24,942 nt of DNA from IMG/VR virus record IMGVR_UViG_3300037063_000214, one strand, 5' to 3'. The DNA comes from a virus. The notes under the pieces are model-generated. The model ran no database searches, was not told the DNA's origin, and worked only from the letters and a program-made list of their open reading frames with translations. A program made the translations under genes and the position numbers. Shown here one piece after another: positions 2,006 through 12,821 of the stretch (its first letter is position 1; each line of letters begins with the position of its first letter).

Positions 2006-2090
2006 GCGGCTGTGGTGGAATGGGCAGACACACCATCTTGAGGGGGTGGCGTCGAAAGATGTGAGAGTTCAAATCTCTCCAGCCGCACCA
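2006..2090 (+). tRNA. tRNA-Leu, anticodon GAG. Class II. CCA is encoded.
   Basis: Acceptor gcggctg/cagccgc. Anticodon stem ccatc/ggtgg with loop ttGAGgg. Variable-arm hairpin cgtc-gaaa-gatg. T arm gagag-ttcaaat-ctctc. A73 and CCA. Confidence 0.8.
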
Positions 2091-4079: not shown

Positions 4080-4242
4080 ACGAGTGGATATTCGAGCTAT
4101 TCTACGCAATCCGGCGCAACGCCGGGAGTTGATGATTCGCTGCATTATCGCCACACAAGCCAGAGAAGATGTCCAAACCACTTATAAACAGGCCGCCGTA
4201 GCTTATGATAAAGTCAGTGACTATCGTAAATCAAATTCCTAA
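4024..4242 (+). CDS. Hypothetical small ORF. The start is uncertain and it overlaps the previous gene.
   Basis: ORF only. An alternative GTG start lies at 4084. Confidence 0.3.
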   Translation: MNQRLVKNAKDGGTFPVNKRVDIRAILRNPAQRRELMIRCIIATQAREDVQTTYKQAAVAYDKVSDYRKSNS

Positions 4243-4289: not shown

Positions 4290-5276
4290 ATGGCAAATGC
4301 AAGCGCAAAAAAATTAGATTTTGACGATGAAGATGAATACGAGCCTCGTCCAGAAATAGGGTCAGATGACGATCAAGCTTATTATCATTGGTCCAAGCGA
4401 AATGGGGTATTTCGCCCTGTAGGTCACACTCAAGATACCGTACCAGCCGGTATTTATGAAATTGATAACGATAATAGCGGCTGGTTCCTATCCAAAGTAA
4501 AATTTCCATCAGATGCTCTACTCCGTTTACCTGGAATGCCTATTGATTTTATCCTTGATCAAATTGACACATTTTGGAAGCGTGAAGAATTATTCACCCA
4601 AACCAAACTCCTCCATAAGCGTGGTATTTTGATGTATGGACCCGCAGGCTGCGGTAAAACATCAATCATTAGACTGCTCTGTGACGATATTGTTAGACGT
4701 GATGGTATTGTGATCATGGTTACTAACTGCCGCTTGGCGGAAACGGCTCTTGGGGGCATTAGGCAAATAGAAACTCGTAGACCTATTCTTACAATTATTG
4801 AAGACATCGAAACCTTCATGGGTCCTGGTGATGAATCTTCATCCGCCAGAGCACTGTTGGCTCTGTTAGACGGAGAAACTCAAGTGGATCACATTGTTCA
4901 TTTGGCCACGAGTAATAAACCTGAACAATTGGAAGATCGTGTCGCTAAGCGTCCTGGGCGTTTTGATCTAGTAGTAAAATTAAGTCATCCGGTGGAAGAA
5001 GCCCGTAGAGCATACCTGTTAAATTTACTCCACGATCATGTAACCCCTGAAGAACTTCAGATTATGGTAGATGAAACTGAAGGTTTGGGATTGGCCCACT
5101 TACGCGAGTTGGTTGTAGCAAACTATTGCTTAGGCTTGGATCGTAAGCAAACATTAAAGCGTTTAAAGAAAAATTTCACAGGATCCTTAAAGGTCAAAAA
5201 GTCGCCCAGCGAGGGAATGGGATTTACCTTTGGTATCGATGAAGATGAAGATGAAAAATCATTAAAAAATGAGTAA
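4290..5276 (+). CDS. AAA ATPase of the classic AAA clade with a roughly 110-aa N-terminal domain.
   Basis: Walker A GPAGCGKTS. Walker B ILTIIEDIE. Second region of homology ATSNKPEQLEDRVAKRPGRFD, which is FtsH/CDC48-like. Confidence 0.85.
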   Translation: MANASAKKLDFDDEDEYEPRPEIGSDDDQAYYHWSKRNGVFRPVGHTQDTVPAGIYEIDNDNSGWFLSKVKFPSDALLRLPGMPIDFILDQIDTFWKREELFTQTKLLHKRGILMYGPAGCGKTSIIRLLCDDIVRRDGIVIMVTNCRLAETALGGIRQIETRRPILTIIEDIETFMGPGDESSSARALLALLDGETQVDHIVHLATSNKPEQLEDRVAKRPGRFDLVVKLSHPVEEARRAYLLNLLHDHVTPEELQIMVDETEGLGLAHLRELVVANYCLGLDRKQTLKRLKKNFTGSLKVKKSPSEGMGFTFGIDEDEDEKSLKNE

Positions 5277-5278
5277 AT

Positions 5279-6343
5279 ATGCCTGATGAAATTGAACTAC
5301 CTAAAAACGAATTCGACATACTACAGGATCGTATGCAAGCCTCTGAAGTGAACCGTAGAATACTTGGGGCCAATCCAGCAAGCGAGATGAGAAAAGTAGC
5401 ATCCGTGGATGGTAGTACACTTCTTTCATCCATGACAAAAAATCAATGGGCTGTATTACCGAATGATTCATTCACAGCCATTGGTACTACGGTTTCTCAT
5501 TTACCTCCAGCGATTTATACTTTATCGTCCGATGGGGGCGCGATATTTTTCCATAAAACTAAAGTTCTTACTGATAATTTAATTGATCTGGATGATAGCG
5601 CGGCTTTGCGAATCATTGCCGGAATTGAGAAATTTTGGGAATCTAAATCCAAATTTGATCGTTTTGGTATTCTCTTCAAGCGCGGCATTCTTATGTGGGG
5701 ACCGGCGGGGTCTGGAAAAACTGCCACAGTTAACATGTTGATGAATGATTTGGTGGGGCGCGGTGGAATGGTTGTAATTGTGCAATTCCCAGGTCTTGCG
5801 ATTGGGGGACTTCATGAACTTCGACGCATTGAACCGGAGCGTCCAATTATTGTAGTATTAGAGGACATCGAAGAAATGATACAAAATTTCGGAGAGCACG
5901 GATTGCTAAGTCTGCTTGACGGAGAGCACCAAGTTTCTAATGTTGTTGTACTGGCTACCACAAATTACCCAGAGCTTCTTGGCGAACGTATTATCAATCG
6001 ACCAAGCCGTTTTGATGAAGTTATTTTAGTAGATATGCCTTCCAAGAATGCACGATATCGGTATCTCAAGCACATATTAAAAGACACGGTACCAGAAGTA
6101 GAACTCCGGCAGTGGGTTATAGCAACCGACAAGCTATCCATCGCCCATTTACGAGAGCTTATTGTTGCTACTCAATGCTTGGATCGCCCATATGCCGAAG
6201 TTGTAGATCGTTTGAGGCGTATGAAAATTCGCCCGAATAGCGAGAAACGCGATAAAGAAGTTCCAGGCTTTTCAAATGTGGGCATGATAATTCCCGGGAA
6301 TTTTTCAAAGGAATGTGGGGGTTCAAGTACATCAAGTAGATAA
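5279..6343 (+). CDS. Second AAA ATPase, a paralogue of the upstream gene. Classic AAA clade.
   Basis: Walker A GPAGSGKTA. Walker B IIVVLEDIEE. SRH ATTNYPELLGERIINRPSRFD. It starts 3 nt after the upstream stop, so the two are translationally coupled. Confidence 0.85.
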   Translation: MPDEIELPKNEFDILQDRMQASEVNRRILGANPASEMRKVASVDGSTLLSSMTKNQWAVLPNDSFTAIGTTVSHLPPAIYTLSSDGGAIFFHKTKVLTDNLIDLDDSAALRIIAGIEKFWESKSKFDRFGILFKRGILMWGPAGSGKTATVNMLMNDLVGRGGMVVIVQFPGLAIGGLHELRRIEPERPIIVVLEDIEEMIQNFGEHGLLSLLDGEHQVSNVVVLATTNYPELLGERIINRPSRFDEVILVDMPSKNARYRYLKHILKDTVPEVELRQWVIATDKLSIAHLRELIVATQCLDRPYAEVVDRLRRMKIRPNSEKRDKEVPGFSNVGMIIPGNFSKECGGSSTSSR

Positions 6344-7542: not shown

Positions 7543-7657
7543 GAGCCGATAAACAGGCAGCAAGGTGGGGTTCGGTAGAACCGACAAAATGATGCGAGAA
7601 GCGGACAAGCACTTCATATGACGGCTGTAGTATCATAGGTACAAGGAATAACAGGTG

Positions 7658-8209
7658 ATGAAAATAGAGGATTCTGTGGAAACTGTGAATACATCAGCTA
7701 AAATTGATATCTTTAAATATGAATGGGAATTTTTGTCTAATTTTTATCCCTGTGAGATTGTTTGGGAAGGAATTACTTACGCTTCCACAGAGCACGCATA
7801 CCAAGCGGCTAAGACACTGGATATAGAGAAACGCCGGATGTTTGGATTAGAAGACAACCCTCGTTTAACAGCCAAAAAAGCAAAAGATATGGGAGCAAAT
7901 ATCAAGAAGAACGGAGAGCTGCGCTCCGATTGGCTCAAAGTCAATATCGGCATCATGCGGGAATTGTTGGTATTGAAATTTGAGAAAGAAGAGCTGAAAC
8001 AAAAATTATTGTCCACAGGCACCGCTTATTTGGAAGAAGGGAACTGGTGGGAAGACAATTTTTGGGGTGTTTGTTATGGGGGCACAGAAAAAGGGTTCCA
8101 TGGAATCAAATGCGGCAAATGGCCCCATGTCCCTTCGGGTGAAAATCATTTAGGTTTATTGCTTATGGCTATTAGGGCTACGTTTATTCCTAGAATACAG
8201 GTGGCATAA
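7658..8209 (+). CDS. NADAR-domain protein (YbiA/DUF1768-like). Predicted ADP-ribose-processing hydrolase.
   Basis: Signature IDIFKYEWEFLSNFYPCEIVWEGITYASTEHAYQAAK. aggtg sits immediately upstream of the ATG. Confidence 0.8.
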   Translation: MKIEDSVETVNTSAKIDIFKYEWEFLSNFYPCEIVWEGITYASTEHAYQAAKTLDIEKRRMFGLEDNPRLTAKKAKDMGANIKKNGELRSDWLKVNIGIMRELLVLKFEKEELKQKLLSTGTAYLEEGNWWEDNFWGVCYGGTEKGFHGIKCGKWPHVPSGENHLGLLLMAIRATFIPRIQVA

Positions 8210-8656: not shown

Positions 8657-8731
8657 CAGGGTATAGTGTTAATGGTAGCACCCTAGTTTCGGGAACTAGT
8701 AGTCTCAGATCATTCCTGAGTACCCTGACCA
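8657..8731 (+). tRNA. tRNA-Pro, anticodon CGG. It has Pro identity elements C1:G72 and A73. The T-loop is non-canonical, atcattc, with A54:U58 swapped.
   Basis: Acceptor cagggta/taccctg. D arm gtgt/gcac with GG in the loop. Anticodon stem ctagt/actag with loop ttCGGga. T stem ctcag/ctgag. ACCA. Confidence 0.6.
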
Positions 8732-8830
8732 GTTTACGGTGTAGCTCAGCCCGGTTTAGAGCAAGCACACCGACTTTCGTTACTTTTTGTACAGCTATCA
8801 AGATTTTTTGTAAAAGGAGTTACTTTTAAG

Positions 8831-8905
8831 CAGGGCGTAGATCAGAGGAAGATCGCAAGTCTGGGGGACTTGAGGCCGGAATATCATAATTTCCCGCCCT
8901 GACCA
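8831..8905 (+). tRNA. tRNA-Pro, anticodon GGG. C1:G72 and A73. The T-loop is non-canonical, atcataa, again with A54:U58. One T-stem pair is a mismatch.
   Basis: Acceptor cagggcg/cgccctg. D arm gatc/gatc. Anticodon stem caagt/acttg with loop ctGGGgg. Then ACCA. Confidence 0.55.
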
Positions 8906-8927
8906 CAGTTTGAAAATTTAAATTTAA

Positions 8928-9013
8928 CTAGGTGTCGGGTAGTTTGGTTTAGCCCACATGCCTTGGGCGCATGTCTCGAAAGAGAATCGCAGGTTCAAAT
9001 CCTGCCACCTAGA
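8928..9013 (+). tRNA. tRNA-Pro-like, anticodon TGG. C1:G72 and A73, but with a class-II-like 15-nt variable-arm hairpin (tctc-gaaa-gaga). No CCA is encoded.
   Basis: Acceptor ctaggtg/cacctag is perfect. D arm gggt/gccc. Anticodon stem catgc/gcatg with loop ctTGGgc. T arm gcagg-ttcaaat-cctgc is canonical. Confidence 0.5.
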
Positions 9014-9079
9014 CATTGGCGACTGTCAGCCGTTAGTAAGTCTGACTTAAAGGCGCATAGAGCGCAGTCGCACTTTTTT

Positions 9080-9340
9080 ATGAGTGTATTCGGCAATACA
9101 TGCGGCGTACGCATTTACAGAGGTCCATGCACCTGTAAAACTGCCTGCCCTAAATGTCAAATAGGCTGCTGGAATCCCGCTGCATATCGTAACCCATGGT
9201 TTGGGAAGCCTGGGCACCAGATTTATTGGTGGAGGGATCCATACAGCTACGCGGAATTTTTATGCGTAGAGCATTATGATGATGCTGTTAAAGACATTGA
9301 AGAATATGAAGAACTTTACCAAACGAAGGGTGTTTGCTGA
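9080..9340 (+). CDS. Cysteine-rich small protein containing CGVRIYRGPCTCKTACPKCQIGCW. The start is uncertain.
   Basis: The first part of the ORF-track ORF 8963-9340 overlaps the tRNA-Pro(TGG)-like gene, so the internal ATG at 9080 was taken. Confidence 0.4.
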   Translation: MSVFGNTCGVRIYRGPCTCKTACPKCQIGCWNPAAYRNPWFGKPGHQIYWWRDPYSYAEFLCVEHYDDAVKDIEEYEELYQTKGVC

Positions 9341-9341
9341 A

Positions 9342-9530
9342 ATGAAATATATTTATGAAGATCACGAGAAGCATACCACATGGGAATGTGAAGCCGAGGA
9401 TTTGCTTGCAGCGGATAAACTCTATGAAGCCGCTGGATGTAGGATGAGTGAAAACGCAAAAAGAAAAAAATCTATGCCTAATGATGTAGGGGCATGGTCA
9501 CCCGATTGGGCGTGTAACAAAAAGGCATAA
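9342..9530 (+). CDS. Hypothetical small protein.
   Basis: ATG lies 2 nt after the upstream stop. Confidence 0.4.
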   Translation: MKYIYEDHEKHTTWECEAEDLLAADKLYEAAGCRMSENAKRKKSMPNDVGAWSPDWACNKKA

Positions 9531-9558
9531 TAGGTTTATTCCAACTAATGGAGGAAGT

Positions 9559-10219
9559 ATGATTATCGAAATTAGAGCGGCTGAAGGCGGACAGGACGCA
9601 AAATTACTGGTCGAAGATCAAATGACCATCTACGCGAGGTTGGCGATACGGAGGGGTCTTTGAGTTTGATGTTACCGAACAACGCCCAGGTATAGCTATC
9701 CTGCGCATTACAGGGGCTACAGCGCCTCAAGTCTTCGCTAACGAGGCAGGAGGTCACCGTTTTCAGAGAATTCCTCCCACGGAGCGTAGCGGTAGAGTTC
9801 AAACCAGTACAATTACTGTGGCTGTTTTTGATGAACCGGAAGTTGCTGCTTTTGCCGTATCCCCAAATGATTTGGCATGGGAGACAATGCGCAGCGGGGG
9901 TAAGGGCGGTCAAAACGCCAATAAACTGGAAACAAAAATACGCTTAAAACATAAACCTACAGGATTAGTCGTGGTTTGCGAATCAGAACGTAGCCAAAAA
10001 AGAAATAAAGACACGGCCTTAGCTGTCCTTACAGCACGTTTGTACGCTGCTGATAAGGATAAAAAAGCTGAAGCTGCTACTACGGATAGGCGACAACAAA
10101 TAGGAACGGGACAACGAGGAGATAAACGCCGTACAATACGAGAAAAAGATGGAAAAGTCGTAGACCATATCACCGGTCAAAAATGGCGTTATTCTGATTA
10201 TGTAAAAGGCATTTGGTAA
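9559..10219 (+). CDS. Class-I release-factor homologue lacking domain 1, of the RF-H/PrfH type. The GGQ motif is present. Translation requires a +1 frameshift at CTT-TGA (9658-9663). Frame 1 covers 9559-9660 and frame 2 covers 9662-10219.
   Basis: Frame 1 reads MIIEIRAAEGGQDAKLLVEDQMTIYARLAIRRGL and then TGA. The +1 frame continues EFDVTEQRPG...GGHRFQRIPPTERSGRVQTSTITVAV...SGGKGGQNANKLETKIRLKHKPTGLVVVCESERSQKRNKDTALAVLTARL...DHITGQKW. Both parts align colinearly with RF1 domains 2-4. There is no start codon in the second frame between its upstream stop at 9623-9625 and the shift site. A GGAGGGG SD-like element sits just before CTT TGA G, as in prfB. Confidence 0.75.
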
Positions 10220-10222
10220 AAA

Positions 10223-10834
10223 ATGGAACAATATCCACATATCGAAGGCAGTACAAAGGCTCCTATAGGAGAACCGTGCATCGCTTTTTATAAGTACGAT
10301 GGTAGTAATCTGCGCTTCGAATGGAGCCCTAAAAAAGGCTGGCATAAGTTTGGCACCAGAAAAGAACTTTTTGACGCTCGCCATCCTTTGTGGTCTCAAG
10401 CCCTTCCCTTGTTTTTAGAGTTTGGAGATGAGATTGTAAAACGAGTGAAAGCATCGGATTGGCGATTGAAAGGTATCCAACGAATTACTGTTTTTTGTGA
10501 ATTCTTTGGACCTAGCAGTTTTGCCGGAATTCATGATGAAAAAGAGCCTAAAGAATTGCGTTTGATCGATGTATACCTTTTCAAAAAAGGTATGATGCCA
10601 GCGAAGCAATTTGTAGAAATTTTTGGAGATATGCCCCAGGCAGCACAGGTAATTTATCAGGGAAATTTGACTAAGCAATTCATAGATGATGTGCGCTTTG
10701 GGGCTTATTCTGTGAATGAGGGCGTGGTCGCTAAGGGCGCTGATTTTCGGGTAAAAATAAAAACTGCTGCTTACTTCAAAAAATTGAATGAACGGCTCCC
10801 AGAGTTAGCGAATGCCTTTGATTGTGAGTATTAG
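10223..10834 (+). CDS. Minimal ATP-dependent RNA ligase of the Rnl2 family. Adenylyltransferase core only, 203 aa.
   Basis: Motif I KYDGSN (KxxGxN). Motif III ITVFCEFFGPSSFAG (compare Rnl2 VFGEFAGPG). Motif IV EGVVAK. Motif V RVKIKT. It starts 4 nt after the release-factor stop. Confidence 0.75.
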   Translation: MEQYPHIEGSTKAPIGEPCIAFYKYDGSNLRFEWSPKKGWHKFGTRKELFDARHPLWSQALPLFLEFGDEIVKRVKASDWRLKGIQRITVFCEFFGPSSFAGIHDEKEPKELRLIDVYLFKKGMMPAKQFVEIFGDMPQAAQVIYQGNLTKQFIDDVRFGAYSVNEGVVAKGADFRVKIKTAAYFKKLNERLPELANAFDCEY

Positions 10835-10844
10835 ACTCTGTACG

Positions 10845-11110
10845 AGTTTGTGCTAATACGAGGTGCGGAGTTCCATAGATTTAGGCGGAACAAGACCTAA
10901 TTTCGGAACTCTACTGGCGACGGTCAGAGTTACCTCGTAGCACAATTTCCCAAACAGATACTTGTCTGGGAGAACTTGAGGACTCAGTGAGCCTCAGGTG
11001 GGGCATATTGGTGGACCCCTGTCCTTCGGGACTTAATCTGGCGGCCCAAGACGAGGAGTCAAGGGCTTAAAGAATCCTAGATTTTTAGTCTGGGAGCATC
11101 AAGCAGTATT
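10845..11110 (+). ncRNA. Structured non-coding region and candidate ncRNA. It has a long closing helix (gtgctaatacgaggt / acctcgtagcac), nested hairpins, and a gtcc-ttcg-ggac tetraloop hairpin.
   Basis: No ORF. Multiple compensatory stems were read by eye. Function unknown. Confidence 0.3.
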
Positions 11111-11211: not shown

Positions 11212-11290
11212 GCCAGTGTAGCATAGTCCGGCCTAATGCGCTTCGCTCATAACGAAGAGATCGGTGGTTCAAATCCACCCGCTGGTACCA
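11212..11290 (+). tRNA. tRNA-Met (elongator type), or tRNA-Ile2 if lysidinylated. Anticodon CAT. CCA is encoded.
   Basis: Acceptor gccagtg/cgctggt with two G-U pairs. D arm gcat/atgc. Anticodon stem cttcg/cgaag with loop ctCATaa. T arm ggtgg-ttcaaat-ccacc. ACCA. Confidence 0.7.
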
Positions 11291-11349: not shown

Positions 11350-12477
11350 ATGCTGAGAACTTTTCAATGTCGGTTGTATCCAAACGCGACGCAGAGACAC
11401 GCGCTGGAGTTCGTCTTGCGTGACAACGCGGAGACGTACAACGCGGCTCTTGCAGAGCGCCGAGATGCATGGAAGTTGGAGCGCAAGGCGATCACCTATC
11501 GAATGCAACAGGACGAACTAACAGAACTACGCCGTGATGAACAATTTGCAAGAGTCGCCTGCGACATTCAACGTGATCCCTTGAGAAGGGTTGACCGAGC
11601 ATTCCAAGCGTTCTTTCGGCGTTGTAAAGCAGGCCAGAAGCCAGGCTTTCCTCGTTTTCGCTCTCATCTGCGCTACGACTCTTTTGGATTCAGTCTCCCA
11701 GTCGTGAATAGTGAACGTCTGAGGATTCCGAATGTGGGGCAGATCAAACTGCGCGGAGGCCGCAGCATTGCAGGTAAGGCGAAGTGTTGCACGGTCAAGC
11801 GAGACGGCAACCGTTGGACGGCTTCAGTCGTGTGCGACATTGGTCCGGCACCAGGGAAGCGTATGGTAACAAATGCTGTCGGAATAGATATGGGCCTGAC
11901 GACGCTCGCCACGCTGTCGGACGGGACGGAGATTGAGAACCCACGCTGGACCCGACAGCACGAAGACCTGATTGCAGCCGCGAATCGCCTACTGGCACGG
12001 AAGCATAAACGTTCGAAGAACCGCATCCGGGCGCGGGAAGCACTGCATCGCGCTCACCAGCGGGCCGCGAATGCCCGTCGCAACTATCTGCATCACGTTT
12101 CCAAATGGCTTGTGGGTAATTACGACCTGATCGCCCACGAAGCCTTAAACATTAAAGGCATGGCGCAAGGACATTTCGCCAAGTCGATTATGGATGCCGC
12201 ATGGAGCATTCTGCTGTCGCAAGTACGCTACAAGGCTGAGAGTGCCGGAGTGTACGCGATAGCGGTGAATCCACGCGGCACGTCACAAATGTGTTCGGGT
12301 TGCGGTCGAAACGTTCCGAAGAAACTGGCGCAGCGGGTGCATAGCTGTCCGCACTGCGGTCTAGTTCTGGGGCGTGACCACAATGCCGGACGGAACATTT
12401 TAGCGTTGGGGATCAACGCTGCGGGCGTAAGCCTTCAAAATCTACACACGACTCGGGTTAGGGAGTTATGTATATAA
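11350..12477 (+). CDS. tnpB: TnpB (IS200/IS605 family OrfB), an RNA-guided RuvC-like nuclease.
   Basis: N-terminal MLRTFQCRLYPNATQRHALE. RuvC-I GIDMGL. RuvC-II LIAHEALNIKGM. C-terminal zinc finger CSGCG...CPHCG followed by RDHNAGRNI. It is markedly more GC-rich than the flanking DNA. Confidence 0.9.
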   Translation: MLRTFQCRLYPNATQRHALEFVLRDNAETYNAALAERRDAWKLERKAITYRMQQDELTELRRDEQFARVACDIQRDPLRRVDRAFQAFFRRCKAGQKPGFPRFRSHLRYDSFGFSLPVVNSERLRIPNVGQIKLRGGRSIAGKAKCCTVKRDGNRWTASVVCDIGPAPGKRMVTNAVGIDMGLTTLATLSDGTEIENPRWTRQHEDLIAAANRLLARKHKRSKNRIRAREALHRAHQRAANARRNYLHHVSKWLVGNYDLIAHEALNIKGMAQGHFAKSIMDAAWSILLSQVRYKAESAGVYAIAVNPRGTSQMCSGCGRNVPKKLAQRVHSCPHCGLVLGRDHNAGRNILALGINAAGVSLQNLHTTRVRELCI

Positions 12478-12743: not shown

Positions 12744-12821
12744 GCGGGGATTAAGCTACGGTGCGCTTGGATGTCTCATAAGCATTCCTCTTAGGTGGTT
12801 CAACTCCACCCTCCGCTACCA
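12744..12821 (+). pseudogene. Degenerate tRNA-like element with a CAT anticodon arm. It is possibly a remnant or duplicate of tRNA-Met.
   Basis: D arm aagc/gctt. Anticodon stem gatgt/gcatt with loop ctCATaa. T arm ggtgg-ttcaact-ccacc. It ends in tACCA, but the acceptor stem pairs poorly. Confidence 0.35.

Follow-up and report, generated by a model that had tools for sequence, protein, structure and literature searches.

The 24,942-nucleotide (nt) stretch of viral DNA considered here, one strand of the IMG/VR virus record IMGVR_UViG_3300037063_000214 and hereafter the window, contains at positions 9559–10219 a gene for a short class-I release factor (RF) that, judging from its sequence and that of its relatives, very probably carries a genuine, conserved programmed +1 frameshift site of the type known from prfB. 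The gene is split between two reading frames, RF homology runs continuously from one into the other, and the codon CTT, a stop codon, and a Shine–Dalgarno (SD)-like element recur at the point of change across the family; no assembly error is involved. A first-pass annotation of the window had proposed such a site, with an SD-like element, a short spacer, CUU, and a stop inside domain 2 of the factor, and its statements about the sequence hold, the arrangement being conserved in 118 genes.

The first part of the gene, open reading frame (ORF) 0, lies on the plus strand at 9559–9663 and comprises 34 sense codons starting with ATG 9559, followed by TGA 9661–9663. Its peptide, MIIEIRAAEGGQDAKLLVEDQMTIYARLAIRRGL, which ends at this stop, comprises the first β-strand of RF domain 2 together with its codon-reading helix (IIEIRAAEGGQDAKLLV...RRGL). 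The ribosome-binding site GGAGGA (9548–9553, +), located 5 nt upstream of the start, was read from the sequence and is kept in three near-identical assemblies; it shows the canonical GGAGG SD pairing that phage and host would both use. The second part, on the same strand at 9662–10219, consists of 185 codons and TAA 10217–10219 and supplies the rest of domain 2 with the tripeptide PPT, domain 3 with GGQ, and domain 4. This +1 frame has a stop at 9623–9625 and is then open from 9626 to the TAA; as had been noted in the first-pass annotation, it lacks a start codon before the shift, since no ATG, GTG, or TTG is present between 9626 and 9817 and the first start codon is GTG 9818.

ORF0 ends in CTT TGA, and RF1 homology resumes gap-free in the +1 frame. 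In the local sequence at 9649–9664, CGG AGG GGT CTT TGA G, the SD-like stimulator GGAGG (9650–9654, +; extended run GGAGGGG at 9650–9656) is formed by the Arg codons CGG AGG and precedes CTT by 3 nt, the spacer being GGT. The shift site CTT TGA G occupies 9658–9664 (+), with CTT at 9658–9660; when T9661 is skipped, decoding resumes at GAG 9662–9664, giving a fused protein of 219 amino acids with the junction at residues 34/35 and the predicted junction peptide ...GLEFDVTEQRPGIAILR. Within the 24.9-kb window, the pattern GGAGGNNNCTTTRA is found a single time, compared with 0.03 occurrences expected from shuffles. TGA is a true stop for at least four other ORFs of the window, which indicates the standard genetic code; the factor is therefore not part of a code switch.

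A 1-nt frame change in a single gene looks like an indel, and public gene callers give only truncated products of 133–195 amino acids; both would be in keeping with a sequencing or assembly indel, or with a decaying pseudogene from which no full-length protein is made. This explanation is nevertheless extremely improbable. The site and the architecture are kept in three independent near-identical phage assemblies (the NCBI metagenome-assembled genome (MAG) contig GCA_017886315.1, Logan SRR12736056, and the ENA metagenome ERZ28656357), in which the differences checked by eye are mostly synonymous in the frame used on the respective side of the site, and in one of which the spacer GGT is changed to TGT. 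The 15-mer CGGAGGGGTCTTTGA recurs unchanged, and at the same codon, in LR745208.1, a huge phage of 485 kb with 45% protein identity. When the phage collection was searched at the DNA level with window positions 9400–10900, no match was obtained, and relatives were found by protein-level searches only. Profile-guided scans covered 80 viral loci and 80 loci in bacterial genome records, with reading frames assigned by hidden Markov models (HMMs), and 55 of 85 viral loci, as well as at least 72 of 80 bacterial-genome loci, have their +1 change at this same codon. The pooled, non-redundant set comprises 118 frameshifted genes (51 viral, 67 from bacterial genome records) that share 41–78% identity, have both halves under purifying selection, and conserve the ORF0 peptide. 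Within the window gene itself, there are no other stops or frame changes, and a systematic homopolymer error is implausible for a 3-nt TTT across sequencing platforms. The comparison with homologues, which the first-pass annotation had named as a possible refutation, thus turned out in favor of the site, as related genomes keep it at the same codon and the near-identical phages show no restoration of a single frame.

The elements of the site are conserved well beyond the background of these genes. The slippery codon is CTT in 118 of 118 members, while CTT accounts for 9.6% of their Leu codons elsewhere; the stop is TGA in 79, TAG in 35, and TAA in 4; and the fourth base after it is C in 91 and G in 22. 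Codon −4 is CGG in 87 of the 118 and codon −3 is AGG in 73, against an AGG share of 8.7% among Arg codons elsewhere in these genes. The family geometry, with the SD-like GGAGG at −11 to −7 and a 3-nt spacer, is the layout of Escherichia coli prfB, whose site AGGGGG-TAT-CTT-TGA has the same 3-nt spacing as that of the window (PMC3711429). The likeness of the family to prfB extends over an SD-like element at −12 to −7, the spacer, a P-site CUU, an in-frame stop, and usually a fourth-base C. As a control, single-frame members of the family (loci L026, L030, L040, and L090–92) have neither the SD-like element nor CTT and carry codons such as GGT CTC GAA or GGT TAC CAG at the shift position; the loss of cassette elements has likewise been reported for in-frame prfB (PMC12421855).

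These features also bear on transcriptional slippage, by which RNA polymerase rather than the ribosome would restore the frame. Such slippage is used by some prokaryotic genes, for example dnaX in some species and insertion sequence elements (PMC3711429); however, it requires long A/T runs, and the site offers only TTT, while what is conserved, namely an in-frame stop, CUU, and an SD-like element whose spacing is fixed, characterizes ribosomal +1 frameshifting. We regard it as hardly conceivable here. Since the assemblies and the conservation across 118 genes agree, assembly error, pseudogene, and transcriptional slippage are practically excluded.

The fused protein is a class-I release factor, derived from RF1, consisting of domains 2–4 without domain 1, and not a member of the PrfH family. 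The Pfam domain PCRF spans residues 2–87, straight over the junction, and RF-1 spans residues 98–203; in the phmmer alignment with Thermotoga maritima RF1, the junction is ungapped, with RRGL|EFDV opposite RKGW|NLEV. Alignment of both frames with HMMs is therefore continuous across the shift, and the earlier description of a protein colinear with RF domains 2–4 is borne out. Because the match to the RF1 profile (347 positions) begins only at position 107 (107–115 across RF1 models), domain 1 is absent. Among NCBIfam models, RF1 scores 205 and 198 bits, RF2 134, and PrfH 82.6; the RF1 scores fall short of the equivalog cutoffs of 400 and 423 (TIGR00019 / NF001859), which belong to full-length models including domain 1, and the PrfH score falls short of its cutoff of 166.65 (TIGR03072). 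The phmmer E-values against the PDB are 2e-46 for RF1, 2e-26 for RF2, and 2.5e-14 for PrfH. The AlphaFold2 model of the fused sequence has a mean predicted local distance difference test (pLDDT) score of 85.6, with a strand at 2–9, a helix at 12–31, and a strand at 35–42, all above 89 (89–95 for strand 2–9 and helix 12–31); as the helix and strand flanking it are confidently modeled, the junction lies inside a well-packed domain 2. Foldseek with this model retrieves ribosome-bound RF1 as the best match (template modeling (TM) score 0.89, root-mean-square deviation 2.2 Å) and PrfH at rank 49 (TM 0.71), with RF2 not top-ranked. RF1 is thus the closest match in sequence and structure over domains 2–4, from which the window protein differs in the missing domain 1 and in the distinctive C-terminal motifs GDKRRTIR and DHITG.

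The first-pass annotation had called the protein RF-H/PrfH-like, an assignment that does not survive beyond the shared loss of domain 1, given the bit scores, E-values, and TM scores above. Both are class-I RF homologues of ~200–230 amino acids that lack domain 1 and contain GGQ (PMC1586002), and in both cases a gene of ligase character is found nearby, as PrfH belongs to the RtcB2–PrfH rescue/repair module and a ligase-like gene adjoins the window gene. However, PrfH has its own decoding-center motifs in place of PxT, and the window gene has no RtcB, its neighbor showing only a weak match to ATP-type RNA ligases.

The reading elements of RF1 are present in the fused protein, namely PPT (residues 72–74), the Gln of FQR, and the Thr of QTS, together with GGQ at 116–118; the earlier reading of the tripeptide as the RF1-like PxT type is thus correct. 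The N-terminal 34 residues contain the AEGGxDA helix tip, which corresponds to the first-base reading element of RF1. A product without these residues would not be a functional decoder because this tip is lost. By structural rules, an RF1-type reading head recognizes UAA and UAG, and not UGA; from its RF1-type PPT head, the window factor is accordingly predicted to be specific for UAA/UAG.

This organization also bears on the possibility that the locus makes two products, ORF0 acting as a leader peptide and an internally started GGQ-domain factor similar to ArfB being translated from the second frame. GTG 9818 indeed opens a 133-amino-acid ORF with the GGQ domain, and some relatives have a called +1-frame ATG ~9 codons before the site, such as P0001 with MQGWRSGGGF. 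Nevertheless, the stretch of the window gene that has no start codon (EFDVTEQRPG...GGHRFQRIPPTERSGRVQTSTITV) is conserved at the protein level and contains the codon-reading loop, and in the AlphaFold2 model, the 34-residue N-terminal piece is an integral strand and helix of domain 2. Moreover, the ATG of the relatives arises incidentally where Tyr-Ala is encoded as TAT GCA; in the window, these codons are TAC GCG, and no ATG results. Two separate products are thus very unlikely.

Certain points weigh against a prfB-style site. The fourth base in the window is G, while C, the base of a weak termination context, is the commonest in the family and in prfB. GGAGG is weak or absent in about one third of the family sites, for example CGC CAC GGT CTT TGA, and hence the SD-like stimulator is not universal. 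Furthermore, with RF1 specificity the UGA would allow no self-feedback, and the selective reason for the site in the window gene is unproven.

By analogy with prfB, we propose the following mechanism; the slippage, how efficiently it works, which codons the factor reads, and how its synthesis is regulated are all inferred. Translation would initiate at ATG 9559 and proceed through 34 codons, after which the ribosome would pause with peptidyl-tRNA-Leu(GAG) on CUU (9658–9660) in the P site and UGA (9661–9663) in the A site. GGAGG at 9650–9654 would pair with the anti-SD of 16S rRNA 3 nt before CUU, and this pairing, along with slow release-factor action at UGA-G, would push the P-site tRNA from CUU to UUU. 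GAG would be decoded next, and translation would run on to TAA 10217–10219, whereas ribosomes terminating at UGA would yield only the 34-residue peptide. The output of the factor would thus be set inversely by the rate of termination at the shift-site stop. In the phage of the window, this rate would be that of host RF2 acting at UGA, since the reading elements of the factor itself (PPT, together with the Gln and Thr for the third base) are of RF1 type.

The stop of the window gene, UGA, is outside the predicted RF1-type reading of the encoded factor, in contrast to the arrangement that underlies autoregulation in prfB, and classical self-feedback is therefore not expected. Across the family, the stop is TGA/TAG/TAA in 67/30/3% of genes, while in prfB it is TGA in 98.6% and never TAG among 8,164 sites (PMC12421855). 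Its identity flips between 97%-identical genes (TGA in L125, TAG in L137). Since family stops include all three codons and swap, RF2-specific sensing is not a conserved property. The proposal of the first-pass annotation that expression reports host RF2 activity therefore stands for the window UGA if the factor has RF1 specificity, but does not carry over to the family. The related claim that the factor cannot feed back through its own UGA is reasonable for the window gene, but in members with TAG or TAA, the factor could feed back on itself. The family tripeptides are PPT in 72 and PPN in 26 members, with SPT, PET, or a deleted loop in others, and no correlation exists in the family between the type of tripeptide and the type of shift-site stop.

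The site may be understood in two ways, either as a generic gate or attenuator responding to termination efficiency, or as a place where the factor works on the ribosome paused at its own site, independently of which codon is there. The latter leads to autoregulation as in prfB, in which the short factor would terminate at its own shift-site stop, by reading all three stops or by releasing paused ribosomes, and frameshifting would drop as the factor accumulates, irrespective of the stop codon. The free swaps between TGA and TAG, even at 97% identity, are explained most simply if stop identity is indifferent to the regulator, and the frequency of the RF1-specific TAG, a codon absent from prfB sites, points the same way; the variation of the tripeptide additionally suggests that specificity may not be strictly RF1-like. 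However, the reading head of the window protein is RF1-like, with PPT and the conserved Gln and Thr, and tripeptide type does not follow stop type as noted above; thus, we consider autoregulation rather unlikely. Tentatively, it is possible that these proteins form a third, hitherto unrecognized lineage of bacterial-type class-I release factors, derived from RF1, lacking domain 1, and widespread in huge phages and Myxococcota records, which acquired or captured the prfB cassette independently elsewhere in the protein and whose production is gated by termination failure at any stop. If so, the factor would be a back-up or rescue terminator made only when termination fails, for instance in translational conflict between phage and host.

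In comparison with prfB, whose product is likewise a class-I release factor, the gene described here is derived from RF1 instead of RF2, and its site lies at codon 34/35 in domain 2 (approximately RF1 residue 120) instead of codon 25/26 in domain 1. For prfA, programmed frameshifting has not been shown, and none was found in a survey of more than 12,000 genomes (PMC12421855); an RF1 counterpart of RF2-type recoding was called unknown in a 2016 review (PMC5009743). Huge phages and phages with recoded stops encode RF1 and RF2, for which frameshifting or truncation is unmentioned (PMC7162821; 10.1101/2021.08.26.457843). The window gene resembles these factors, described by Al-Shayeb in 2020 and by Borges in 2021, the latter as a "code-change module", in being a release factor of a large phage within a tRNA array, and TGA-recoding low-GC relatives carry a single-frame homologue with in-frame TGAs; it differs in that, under the standard code of the window, TGA is a stop. 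The eRF1 of Mimiviridae is also a viral termination factor whose own expression needs both readthrough and frameshifting (PMC5009743); it is eukaryotic-type, unrelated in sequence, and dependent on other recoding signals.

According to the PRFect paper, all CUU-stop +1 entries in RECODE are prfB (PMC10885494), and prfB is the sole release factor listed in the GeneTack survey (PMC3711429). In the literature searched, with its subscription-only part outside the search, no description was found of a frameshift in an RF1-like or phage release factor or of the short RF1-like family. The CUU-stop +1 cassette has hitherto been treated as unique to prfB; its use by a second large and independent gene family would mark it as a portable or convergently evolvable module. 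As the stop alternates between an RF2-specific and an RF1-specific codon, the family constitutes a natural experiment on the autoregulation model. It also brings to light an unstudied RF1 without domain 1 in the tRNA islands of huge phages and in Myxococcota genome records, and it would correct a systematic annotation error, in which database homologues mostly fall short of the fused length. Of the 120 homologues with the best scores in a large protein database, 98, with lengths of 133–218 amino acids, cover just 61–88% of the fused protein, as would be expected for gene calls begun in the +1 frame. The name given to the database homologues by the Joint Genome Institute is "peptide chain release factor 1".

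Five loci keep one frame, interrupted by just one in-frame stop that coincides with the shift codon or adjoins it, and homology continues in frame. The stop takes the place of the shift-site stop codon in L017 (CTC TGA CTG, ~4103–4105), L020 (CTA TGA CTG, ~4100–4102), and L021 (TAT TAG ATG, ~4103–4105) and lies one codon earlier in L084 (GGA TGA AAG) and L089 (GGC TGA CTC). L020 and L021 are syntenic relatives with different stop types, and the large flanking ORFs inspected at these two loci contain no internal stops of the respective type. The five genes are candidate programmed readthrough variants of the release-factor gene. A readthrough version of release-factor feedback was listed as unknown in the 2016 recoding review (PMC5009743); if the candidates prove true, they would represent this long-hypothesized form.

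Low-GC (29–40%) relatives from huge phages (L002–L004, L039, L045, L050, L059, L065–L072, L075–L079, L083, L085, and L087) have the gene in a single frame with one or two in-frame TGAs, at profile positions 37 or 42 and 50, as would suit phages in which TGA is translated as Trp and an RF1-type factor is encoded. As evidence on the genetic code of relatives, the extent of open frames under other codes is uninformative in GC-rich DNA; interpretable are only the low-GC loci with multiple in-frame TGAs and the stop usage of the window itself. The PxT loop is lost and GGQ kept in L001 (LR745208.1), L046, L053, and L017, for example as QRTSNGRIHSS or QHAPTGKVHTS; the first three retain the frameshift site, and L017 is of the in-frame-stop type. 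Canonical reading of stop codons may thus not be required in all lineages.

The family is not phage-specific, as 67 of the 118 frameshifted homologues come from bacterial genome records. These are mostly Myxococcota of the class Polyangia and mostly MAG bins, with other phyla scattered among them, and MAGs of Kofleriaceae and Sandaracinaceae are well represented among the matches. Two are long records from cultured strains, the complete Minicystis rosea chromosome CP016211.1 and a 6.98-Mb contig of Nannocystaceae ST9. The frameshifted short RF1-like gene is found at both (L107, CP016211.1 positions 5209470–5216127, and L162, respectively) and at most of the loci L093–L169. Among ten ORFs flanking the gene in M. 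rosea and ST9 that were scanned, three had Pfam matches, all to ordinary cellular families (sigma-70 region, GDSL lipase, and TPR repeats), and no RtcB or phage hallmark gene was seen among these ten ORFs.

The window phage encodes a DNA polymerase, a portal protein, an HNH endonuclease, a methyltransferase, and nine tRNAs, and in phages the release-factor gene sits inside tRNA arrays. The tRNA-Leu with anticodon GAG at 2006–2090 (+), detected by ARAGORN and by the Rfam tRNA model, is the cognate reader of CUU; this phage tRNA might be tied to the frameshift, the same isoacceptor type being the one that slips in prfB. The Rfam scan of the window returned tRNAs only and no known frameshift element. 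tRNAs at 1614–2513 and 8657–9014 are grouped by amino acid (Tyr; four Leu, with anticodons gag, tag, cag, and caa; two Pro; two Met), and several are of unusual length, such as the Tyr species at 93 nt and Pro(tgg) at 87 nt, whose anticodon is at position 37. ARAGORN called nine tRNAs, of which seven reach the Rfam gathering score; tRNA-Tyr at 1614–1706 and tRNA-Met at 12744–12817 do not.

The upstream neighbor of the release-factor gene, at 9276–9530, has no Pfam or PHROG match, and RtcB was not found beside the window gene. Close relatives have both a small RNA-ligase-like gene and a NADAR gene in the vicinity of the release-factor gene. In the window, a 203-amino-acid ORF at 10223–10834 (+) begins 4 nt past the release-factor stop and contains KYDGSN, of the nucleotidyl-transferase KxDG type; it has no Pfam or NCBIfam match, only a weak PHROG match to an ATP-type RNA ligase (phrog_548, E 5.6e-5), and may be a minimal RNA ligase. 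A ligase-like gene adjoins or is near the release-factor gene in L011, L012, L014, L015, L036, and L037; as a partner in a common system, it was rejected, the synteny being confined to close relatives and absent from the two myxobacterial loci. A NADAR-domain protein, of an ADP-ribose-processing family, is encoded at 7655–8209 (+), upstream of the tRNA-Pro pair, and NADAR homologues occur within a few kb of the release-factor gene in at least 11 related viral loci.

Between tRNA-Met at 11212–11290 and the tRNA-Met at 12744–12817, the window carries a TnpB gene (IS605 OrfB, Cas12f-like; 11350–12477, +). In the near-identical relative L170, a TnpB lies elsewhere, on the upstream side of the NADAR gene, and because of this difference in position, the element seems to have been recently mobile in the phage lineage. 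Additionally, two adjacent paralogous ATPase-like genes are present at 4290–5276 and 5279–6343 (+), both matching the same PHROGs, phrog_7485 and phrog_2376.

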